Origin: Candidatus Micrarchaeota archaeon
GTDB taxonomy: Archaea > Micrarchaeota > Micrarchaeia > Anstonellales > Bilamarchaeaceae
Direction: 5' to 3'
DNA length: 57,581 nucleotides
Assembly (NCBI GenBank): GCA_018812625.1
Contig: JAHJDH010000031.1
Coordinates: 1 to 57,581, forward strand
The first letter of the stretch is position 1. Every line of letters begins with the position of its first letter. Below the pieces are notes generated by a model. The model saw only the letters and a list, made by a program, of their open reading frames with translations, did not search any database and was not told the DNA's origin. Both the position numbers and the translations under genes were made by a program. This document shows positions 45,808 through 47,342 of the stretch, piece after piece.

Positions 45808-47342
45808 GGAGGTGATCTATCCGCAGGTTCCCCTACGGATACCTTGTTACGACTTAGCCCCCCTCACGTCCTCCCGGTTCGAGCCCGGCAATAACCAGGA
45901 CCTCACCGAAAAAACATTTGGGTGACTTGACGGGCGGTGTGTGCAAGGAGCGGGGACACATTCACCGCGCGATAGTGACACGCGATTACTAGCCATTCCA
46001 TCTTCACGAGGGTGGGTTTCAACCCTCGATTCGAACCACGGATGGATTTCGGGGATTGGCTCCTTCTCTCGAAGTTGCAGCCCATTGTTCCACCCACTGT
46101 ATGCCGCGTGTAGCCCAAGTAGTTTCGGACCATACTGACCTACCGTTGCCCACTCCTTCCTCCCACTTAGCGCGGGCAGTCCGTTTAAAGTACACCTTCC
46201 CCGGAGGGAAAGTTAGTAACTAAACGCATGGGTCTCGCTCGTTGCCTGACTTAACAGGACAGTTCACACCACGAGCTGACGATGGCCATGCAATACCTCT
46301 CGGCTCGTCTGGCAAGACCTTCAGCCTGGCCGTCATTCTGCCGTCTCCACTGGTAATATTTCCGGCGTTGTATCCAATTAAACCGTAGCATCCACGGCTT
46401 GTGGTGCTCCCCCGCCAATTCCTTTAAGTTTAAATCTTGCGATCGTACTCCCCAGGCGGCTGACTTAAGACCTACGCTACAGCACTGCACATGATTACTC
46501 ATGCGCAACACCACAGTCAGCATAATTTACAGCTAGGACTACCGGGGTATCTAATCCCGTTCGCTCCCCTAGCTTTCGTCCCTCACCGTCGAACACGTTT
46601 TGGGTCGGCGCCTTCGCCACTGGTAGTCCGTCCAGGCTCAACAGATTTTACCCCTACCCTGGACGTACTCCGACCCTCCCCCGTTCCCGAGATTAGCAGT
46701 ATCTACTGCAAGCGATGGAGTTGAGCTCCAACATTTCACAGTGGACTTACTTATCCGGCTACGGACGCTTTAGGCCCAGTATTCGTGGATATCACTCGAG
46801 GCGCTGGTGTTACCGCGGCGGCTGCCACCAGTCATAGGCCACTCCCTATAGACTGTTCTAGCTATAAAGGTGTGTTTGCCCACACCCTTATTCTCCAAGC
46901 GATTTAGACTTGGTAAAAGACGATAGCATTGCTATCGCCACTCAGACTTCCCCTATCACGCTTTCGCGCATTGTAGAGGTTTCGCGCCTGCTGCACCCCG
47001 TAGGGCTAGGGTCCTTGTCTCAGTACCCTTCTGAGGGCCACCACTCTCATGGCCCTTATGGATTATCGGCTTGGTGAGCCATTACCTCTCCAACTACCAT
47101 AATCCACCGCAGTCTCATCCTAAGGCGAACTGGTTCCATTTCACCAGCCATTTAAATGCCCAAGCATTCCAGCATAGGGCACATATCGCGGGTTAGCCTC
47201 AGTTTCCCGAGGTTATTCACGTCCTTAGGGTAGATTGACTACGTGTTACTCAGCCTTATGCCGCCCACCCAAGTGAGTGAGCTGACTTGCATGGCTTAAT
47301 CGAAGTCTGATAGCAATATCCTCCAGCAGGATCAACTGGAAT
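45808..47342 (-). rRNA. rrs: 16S rRNA, archaeal, unlinked, with a 42-nt intron
   Basis: 5' ATTCCAGTTGATCCTGC; CAGCCGCCGCGGTAA, GGATTAGATACCC, AAACTTAAAGGAATTG, GTCGTAACAAGG; 3' GATCACCTCC. Confidence 0.98.
46834..46875 (-). other. 42-nt archaeal BHB intron in the 16S rRNA
   Basis: Removal restores GGGCAA|GACTGG; junctions form a canonical bulge-helix-bulge. Confidence 0.88.

Follow-up and report, generated by a model that had tools for sequence, protein, structure and literature searches.

A census from 2015 lists archaeal 16S rRNA introns at 13 loci, namely E. coli positions 374, 548, 722, 781, 803, 901, 908, 919, 978, 1093, 1205, 1213 and 1391 (Jay and Inskeep, PMC4496867). It includes introns of less than 50 nucleotides (nt) from Thermoproteales, Desulfurococcales and Aigarchaeota. 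In Candidatus Micrarchaeota (ARMAN-2, Mia14 and ARM-1), 16S insertions of about 500 base pairs (bp) that carry an open reading frame (ORF) were described at E. coli position 1093 (Golyshina et al., 2017, PMC5498576; Sakai et al., 2022, PMC8784108), and their splicing was called uncertain by Sakai et al. (PMC8784108). The bulge-helix-bulge (BHB) motif is defined as a central helix of 4 bp with a 3-nt bulge on each side, the bulges lying on opposite strands (PMC7714728; PMC3239211). In this study, we analysed a stretch of 57,581 nt from a Candidatus Micrarchaeota archaeon of the Bilamarchaeaceae (assembly GCA_018812625.1, contig JAHJDH010000031.1, positions 1 to 57,581 of the forward strand), here called the window, whose 16S rRNA gene carries 42 extra nt in helix 18. 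We are confident that they represent an archaeal BHB intron without an ORF, located at E. coli position 509/510, which is spliced, was gained once, has been inherited vertically and was lost at least two times.

The element belongs to a known class, the short ORF-less BHB introns of archaeal rRNA, and is real and spliced; its site was not found in print. It resembles the introns of less than 50 nt in the census in being an ORF-less hairpin, in its location in a conserved 16S region at or near a bulge, and in the BHB core at its junctions (PMC4496867). However, 509/510 is outside its 13 loci, and the host is a DPANN archaeon (Micrarchaeota) rather than one of the hot-spring Crenarchaeota catalogued there (PMC4496867). 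Further differences are the RNA data for its removal and a conserved complementarity to both exon ends. With the insertions at position 1093 it shares the phylum and the gene, whereas it is 42 nt long, contains no ORF, is located at 509/510 and is absent from RNA (PMC8784108; PMC5498576). An earlier note on this DNA, made from the sequence alone, had tentatively placed the site outside the commonly listed archaeal 16S introns, and the census agrees with it. A literature search with subscription journals and supplements outside its coverage returned no report of an intron at 509/510. The Micrarchaeota reports found by it concern, in their available text, position 1093 and group I introns at SSU/1498, and not the 509/510 site. 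In the main text of the paper that named Candidatus Bilamarchaeum (PMC8561730), the words 'intron' and 'insertion' have zero occurrences. Public sequencing runs that contain the intron-bearing gene are labelled groundwater, sediment, biofilm and aquatic.

The gene matches the full Rfam model SSU_rRNA_archaea (Table 1) and is the sole 16S match across the 1.27-Mb, 43-contig, 85%-complete genome. In RNA sense, the conserved AAUAAGGGUGUGGGCAA is followed by the 42 extra nt (46875 down to 46834) and then by the exon GACUGGUGGCAGCCGCCGCGGUAA. In three members of the same genus (L007, L008 and L009) the junction is uninterrupted, TGGGCAA being directly followed by GACTGG. Therefore, only one placement of the 42 nt is possible in the window, and it is the one that the earlier note had predicted from the BHB. 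Anchored on E. coli K-12 rrsH, the first base of the 3' exon is position 510. Thus, the insert site is 509/510, in the bulge loop of helix 18 and 5 nt upstream of position 515, close to the earlier estimate of about 510 just upstream of the 515F primer site. The 16S gene of NZ_CP091773.1, where the 3' exon had its sole hit in the ecoli_genomes set, was dropped as numbering reference, with its 515F site at position 490 and a sequence unlike K-12. This gene (484152-485668, L067) is filed as E. coli and differs from K-12 over 481-560, which points to misassembly or to an rRNA gene of foreign origin. The program cmscan puts the extra 42 nt too far upstream, in the region of helix 17 (where 59 nt stand opposite 17 model positions, alignment at window 46850-46910), because the 3' end of the intron (GGGAGUGGCCUAUGAC) resembles the end of the 5' exon and is aligned as exon. 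Covariance-model and other automatic aligners will put the intron in the wrong place.

The RNA around the insert reads GU-GGGC-AA^A-CAC...GUG-GCCU-AU^G-AC (carets mark the cuts), exactly as transcribed in the earlier note. The core of the insert is a 3-4-3 BHB with the central helix GGGC/GCCU and the bulges AAA and AUG. Archaeal BHBs are cut after the second nucleotide of the bulge. Such cuts restore GGGCAA-GACUGG here, which is the junction of the intron-less genes. Helices flank the BHB on both sides, as in the strict form (hBHBh'), and the inner helix runs on into a 12-pair stem. Among 48 distinct inserts with the same flanks, collected at this site from independent assemblies, all have standard pairs throughout the central helix (4/4) and the outer helix (2/2); the inner helix has 3/3 pairs in 39 and at least 2/3 in 47 of them. 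When the motif is written as a 4-bp helix with two 3-nt bulges, two outer and three inner pairs, G-U allowed, it fits 26 of the 152,164 candidate cut pairs in the 16S gene (1.7e-4). Thus, a BHB motif somewhere in the gene is nothing rare in itself. That it coincides with the single junction fixed by comparison has a chance of 1.7e-4 and is unlikely to be accidental. Covariation was counted on a MAFFT alignment of 30 distinct sequences. In this alignment 90.3% of the cells are paired in the BHB fold, and 7 of 11 pairs of the inner stem (36 cells) are changed on both sides. The covariation score is 0.180 compared with 0.099 in shuffled alignments, none of 500 shuffles reaching it, and the paired share falls to 33.6-53.1% when the register is slid.

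Parts of the gene occur in 21 public runs, of which 13 are RNA libraries. One DNA run (X1) and three RNA runs (X2, X4 and X12), each RNA run from another study, were compared over positions 46555-47154. In the DNA run, the bins 46835-46874 have a depth of 19.1, no contig joins 46833 to 46876, and a 194-nt contig (46804-46997) reads through the intron with 0 differences. In all three RNA runs the same bins have depth 0, while the bins neighbouring the intron reach depths from 14 up to hundreds of thousands. Contigs that join 46833 to 46876 and skip the 42 nt were found once in X2 (depth 8540), six times in X4, together with 10 loose ends reading into 46876-46891, and once in X12. Hence, the 42 nt are absent from these RNA contigs and the exons are joined. 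The earlier note had asked whether mature rRNA keeps the 42 nt and whether the insert lacks DNA support. Since the RNA contigs skip the 42 nt and the DNA run keeps them, this test favours splicing, and the DNA contig and the 48 distinct inserts speak for the insert itself.

Both genes expected for protein-dependent splicing are present in the genome. Contig C22 encodes a protein of 389 amino acids (aa) with the Pfam domains tRNA_int_endo and tRNA_int_endo_N. Its residues 5-389 match PDB entry 4fz2 (395 aa, E 2.6e-131; database label 'tRNA intron endonuclease'), which we take to be the three-unit enzyme of ARMAN-2. An RtcB ligase is encoded as well (556 bits). The three-unit (epsilon2) endonuclease of ARMAN-2, which the 389-aa EndA resembles from end to end, cleaves strict and relaxed BHBs in vitro, also at non-canonical positions (Fujishima et al., 2011, PMC3239211). 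Its published substrates are pre-tRNAs, in contrast to the rRNA substrate in helix 18 proposed here (PMC3239211). According to the proposed mechanism, the exon strand GU-GGGC would pair in the precursor with intron GCCU and exon AC, so that the 4-bp helix lies between the two 3-nt bulges. EndA of the three-unit ARMAN-2-like type would then cut after the second nucleotide of each bulge, and RtcB would ligate the exons to GGGCAA-GACUGG. EndA and RtcB are thus the presumed acting enzymes, and the excised intron would be circularised.

Beside the 389-aa enzyme type, the genome encodes a second EndA-like protein of 162 aa (C26:25136-25621; L032:1447-1935). It is found in 23 of 24 relatives of the same genus, whereas most other families of the order give only a weak match or none. 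This paralogue is also present in the intron-less genomes G004 and G015 and therefore does not track the intron. ARAGORN with intron search found just 18 tRNAs in the genome, 10 of them with intron calls; these calls are unreliable as splicing evidence and were unused as such. The low number fits heavily interrupted tRNA genes that are missed by standard finders.

Several observations weigh against a spliced BHB intron. The outer helix, a point beyond the earlier note, has just 2 bp. The columns of the central and outer helices are invariant in the 30-row alignment and hold zero covariation information; they never vary because half of each helix is exon, and they are therefore uninformative either way. 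In a context of 132 nt the central helix has a pair probability of 0.0, so that the BHB population is essentially zero in thermodynamic models, and the BHB-constrained fold reaches -33.6 kcal/mol compared with -49.2 kcal/mol for the minimum free energy (MFE) fold. The RNA evidence consists of assembled contigs instead of raw reads, and in X2, X4 and X12 taken together there are two runs whose joint has just 21 and 25 nt on its shorter side. Neither precursor nor excised intron nor circular intron was seen in the RNA contigs of X2, X4 and X12. In addition, the DNA run and the RNA runs derive from different samples. The joined contigs could therefore come from co-occurring strains without the intron but with identical flanks instead of from the spliced allele, and intron-less species do occur in the genus, where 3 of 15 genomes covering the site have no intron. 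We consider this origin improbable. Known intron-less alleles clearly differ in the adjacent variable hairpins, whereas the RNA contigs agree with the window without a single difference over at least 104 nt. In X12, the joint contig of 140 nt has 36 nt on one side and on the other 104 nt (46876-46979) with 0 differences, which span two variable hairpins that differ in known intron-less species. Moreover, the outcome is the same in three studies with zero intron k-mers, and the DNA run with this sequence shows only the intron-bearing form.

Even less probable is a removal by another route, either by self-splicing or by another nuclease and ligase, with the BHB being incidental. Such a route would agree with a BHB that is not the predicted ground state and with the 26 chance fits of BHB-like motifs in the gene. 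However, any group I or II ribozyme is far larger than 42 nt, and the SSU rRNA is the only family that reaches the Rfam gathering score in the window. Furthermore, the cuts fixed by comparison fall exactly between the second and third nucleotides of both bulges, the inner stem covaries, and EndA and RtcB are encoded. Least credible of all is that helix 18 keeps the insert as an expansion segment, or that the insert is an intervening sequence excised without religation, leaving a fragmented 16S rRNA. Insertions kept in mature rRNA do occur in other small-genome lineages, and the local MFE fold differs from the BHB. However, the 42 nt have zero depth in the RNA contigs of three studies, where both exons are joined in one contig, and the site is in the bulge loop beside the pseudoknot strand 505-507, among the most conserved parts of 16S rRNA.

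The local MFE fold deserves attention in its own right. This fold (-27.3 kcal/mol, z-score -4.68), likewise not part of the earlier note, differs from the BHB and consists of two hairpins, A and B (Table 1), which pair the intron with each of the two exon ends; the 5' splice site is in the loop of hairpin A, the 3' splice site is within the helix of hairpin B, and GCCU is sequestered. Both exon-intron pairings are present in the MFE fold of 44 of the 48 distinct inserts, and the central BHB helix in one. Across the 48 inserts the BHB-constrained fold is less stable than the MFE by a median of 15.3 kcal/mol (range 5.2-20.1). In the 132-nt context, hairpin B has a pair probability of 0.96-0.98. 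When RNAalifold is run by itself on the 30-sequence alignment, it gives the competing fold and not the BHB. In this alignment, 88.1% of the cells are paired overall and 96.3% in hairpin B, with a covariation score of 0.115 compared with 0.091 in shuffles (0/500 shuffles reach the score). In the motif ACAGUC four of the six bases (A, C, G and U) are invariant in 30/30 rows, although the BHB fold would leave most of the motif in its terminal loop. CRGUY is found at a fixed distance in 46/48 distinct inserts, and the 3' segment forms a hairpin of 9-10 bp in all 46 sequences of the intron family. The last intron nucleotide, a bulge base in the BHB, pairs in 40 of these 46 (G-U 14, A-U 13, U-A 11, G-C 1, U-G 1). 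Among the rows of the 16S tree, A at this position has the partner U in 10/10 cases and U has the partner A or G in 13/13. This covariation is suggestive: independent contrasts on supported branches all run in the expected direction, with three too few for a test (3/3, p = 0.25). As a control, the BHB is 1.9-8.0 kcal/mol above the MFE in five other mini-introns of helix 18 (L006, L015, L018, L017 and L062). Thus, the large gap is a property of the 509/510 family and not of the energy model.

The potential for exon-intron pairing is probably conserved, and the conserved exon-pairing fold is possibly a structural feature new here; our literature search found no report of such a competing fold in BHB introns. 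It may be left over from a local duplication that gave rise to the intron, with the near-symmetry of the BHB imposing it in part. The naked precursor is predicted to adopt this more stable conserved fold before the BHB can form. Because the competing fold is more stable than the BHB, splicing would need a refolding step. A tentative and rather unlikely extension of the model is that the intron acts in cis as a placeholder for both 5' strands of helix 18 and makes splicing wait for refolding. Within helix 18, the 5' end of the intron would bind the 5' strand of the lower stem, and ACAGUC-UAGG, reaching over the 3' splice site, would bind that of the upper stem. Both helix-18 strands would be held and both BHB halves hidden until the 30S precursor refolds; then the BHB could form and EndA could cut. 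In the group I intron of Tetrahymena rRNA, alternative exon hairpins compete with the splice-site helices. There, too, exon pairing excludes the splicing-competent structure and links splicing to rRNA folding. However, the Tetrahymena intron is a self-splicing ribozyme and the BHB intron is spliced by proteins, so that the likeness is an analogy only.

A total of 41 genomes (40 relatives and that of the window) were searched for 16S genes, with a match in 30. Pattern scans gave 33 loci in genome_contigs, of which three are false, and 37 loci in metagenome_contigs, of which nine are false; the false positives are caused by an upstream TGGGYAA. A common family sequence is shared by 46 of the 48 distinct inserts, and in L064 and L085 the ends are kept and the interior differs. 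Titles of the family loci from genome_contigs name Micrarchaeota, Micrarchaeia or Bilamarchae- in 26 of 28 cases. Among the 15 genomes of the genus that cover the site (including that of the window), 11 have the family intron, three have none and one (L017) has an unrelated insert of 48 nt one base downstream. No insert at 509/510 was found in 12 loci from other families of the order. The intron columns were left out when a 16S tree was calculated (IQ-TREE quick search on 42 rows and 900 columns, with support from the Shimodaira-Hasegawa-like approximate likelihood ratio test, SH-aLRT, only). On this tree, a single clade of 32 rows (SH-aLRT 98) contains all 28 family introns. L008 and L009, which lack the intron, are deep inside this clade, as sister to L039 within a clade with support 99, and the intron-less L007 branches separately from them. 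The family label needs 4 changes on the tree and the intron-less label 4, compared with a mean of about 11-12 after shuffling, and the intron subtypes follow the host tree. By blastn-short, no second copy of the intron was found in the genome. There is no sign of mobility for this single-copy intron confined to one clade, and the patchy distribution and internal ORF of mobile homing-endonuclease introns are not seen; 42 nt are too short to hold such an ORF, in line with the ORF-less insert of the earlier note. Most simply, the intron was gained once, long ago, by the ancestor of a Micrarchaeota clade (with Bilamarchaeaceae-like titles), was then inherited vertically and was exactly lost two times or more.

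Insertions have entered the bulge loop of helix 18 on more than one independent occasion. At 510/511, L017 (of the same genus) carries the insert of 48 nt and L062 (titled Aenigmatarchaeota) one of 45 nt, unrelated in sequence, with the central helices GGCA/UGCU and GGUA/UACC. In L006, L015 and L018, from other families of the order, an insert of 31-43 nt splits the universal sequence between CAGCCGCC and GCGGTAA, that is within the 515F primer site and the 530 loop. It has a 3-4-3 core of GCCG/CGGU with the bulges CCA and AAG and no outer helix, and looks like a second intron site in helix 18. These mini-introns (31-48 nt) share the BHB core with the 509/510 family but differ in site and sequence, as well as in the smaller energy gap given above. 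Several 16S matches in relatives exceed the 1478-position model, with spans of 3766 nt in G033 (L018), 1755 nt in G034 (L016), 1627 nt in G028 (L015) and 1588 nt in G010 (L013). In several other relative genomes the match is split at model position 828/829. Further, larger 16S insertions in relatives are likely.

The coordinates of the intron and of its structural elements are collected in Table 1.

Table 1. The intron-bearing 16S rRNA gene in the window and the elements of its two folds (RNA 5' ends have the higher coordinates).
Feature	Position	Strand	Basis
16S rRNA gene, intron host	45807..47342	-	Rfam RF01959, 1363.7 bits, model 1-1478
42-nt BHB intron, E. coli 509/510	46834..46875	-	RNA 5' end 46875, 3' end 46834; intron-less congeners, RNA contigs of three studies
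BHB 5' exon strand: outer-helix GU (46883-46882), central-helix GGGC (46881-46878)	46878..46883	-	standard pairs in 48/48 inserts
5' bulge AAA, cut between 46876 and 46875	46875..46877	-	congener junction, RNA contigs
Intron 5' strand: pairs with 46851-46840 (inner BHB stem) or, from 46874 to 46864, with exon 46891-46881 (alternative fold)	46862..46874	-	covariation; folding
ACAGUC motif, mostly terminal loop of the BHB fold; CAGUC complementary to GACUG, the first five bases of the 3' exon	46851..46856	-	conservation
Intron 3' strand of inner BHB stem	46840..46851	-	covariation
Central-helix 3' strand GCCU	46836..46839	-	pairing in 48 inserts
3' bulge AUG, cut between 46834 and 46833	46833..46835	-	congener junction, RNA contigs
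3' exon strand AC of the 2-bp outer helix	46831..46832	-	pairing in 48 inserts
5' exon segment pairing with intron 5' end (hairpin A of the alternative fold; 5' splice site in loop)	46881..46891	-	folding
Hairpin B of the alternative fold: 46855-46845 with 46838-46829, 3' splice site inside helix	46829..46855	-	folding, pair counts, RNAalifold

Some further features of the rRNA genes were observed. All family members in the clade of the window have GUGGCAGCC (window 46814-46828, minus strand), compared with GUGCCAGC in E. coli and GTGCCAGCC in other families of the order. The difference in GUGGCAGCC is a G at E. coli position 518, within the 515F primer site. This G may lower the amplification with standard primers. 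In the family members seen, DNA amplicons across the insert site exceed the rRNA length by 38-55 nt. Leader and trailer of the 16S gene (window 47422-47435 and 45717-45730, plus adjacent bases) pair into a long processing stem (core -41 kcal/mol), which has two 3-nt bulges on opposite strands that are 6 bp apart compared with the canonical 4. The 23S rRNA gene is located on a separate contig (C10:14978-17642) and runs off the contig end (model 16-2712 of 2987). Since no 23S gene is present inside the 57.6-kb window either, the 16S and 23S genes appear to be unlinked.

In summary, a further 16S intron site is described here, which lies in helix 18 next to the 530 loop of the decoding centre and is backed by transcript data. 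The host of the intron is a mesophilic DPANN lineage, in contrast to the thermophilic Crenarchaeota in which such introns were catalogued. The intron shows that a protein-spliced mini-intron can persist by vertical descent over a clade at the family level and be precisely lost. If the competing fold is functional, this would be a BHB intron that couples its own removal to rRNA folding, the first such case known to us. If the intron indeed acted as a placeholder, splicing would be a timer or checkpoint for the formation of the 530-loop pseudoknot, with a logic comparable to that of small nucleolar RNA (snoRNA) or leader placeholders in ribosome assembly.

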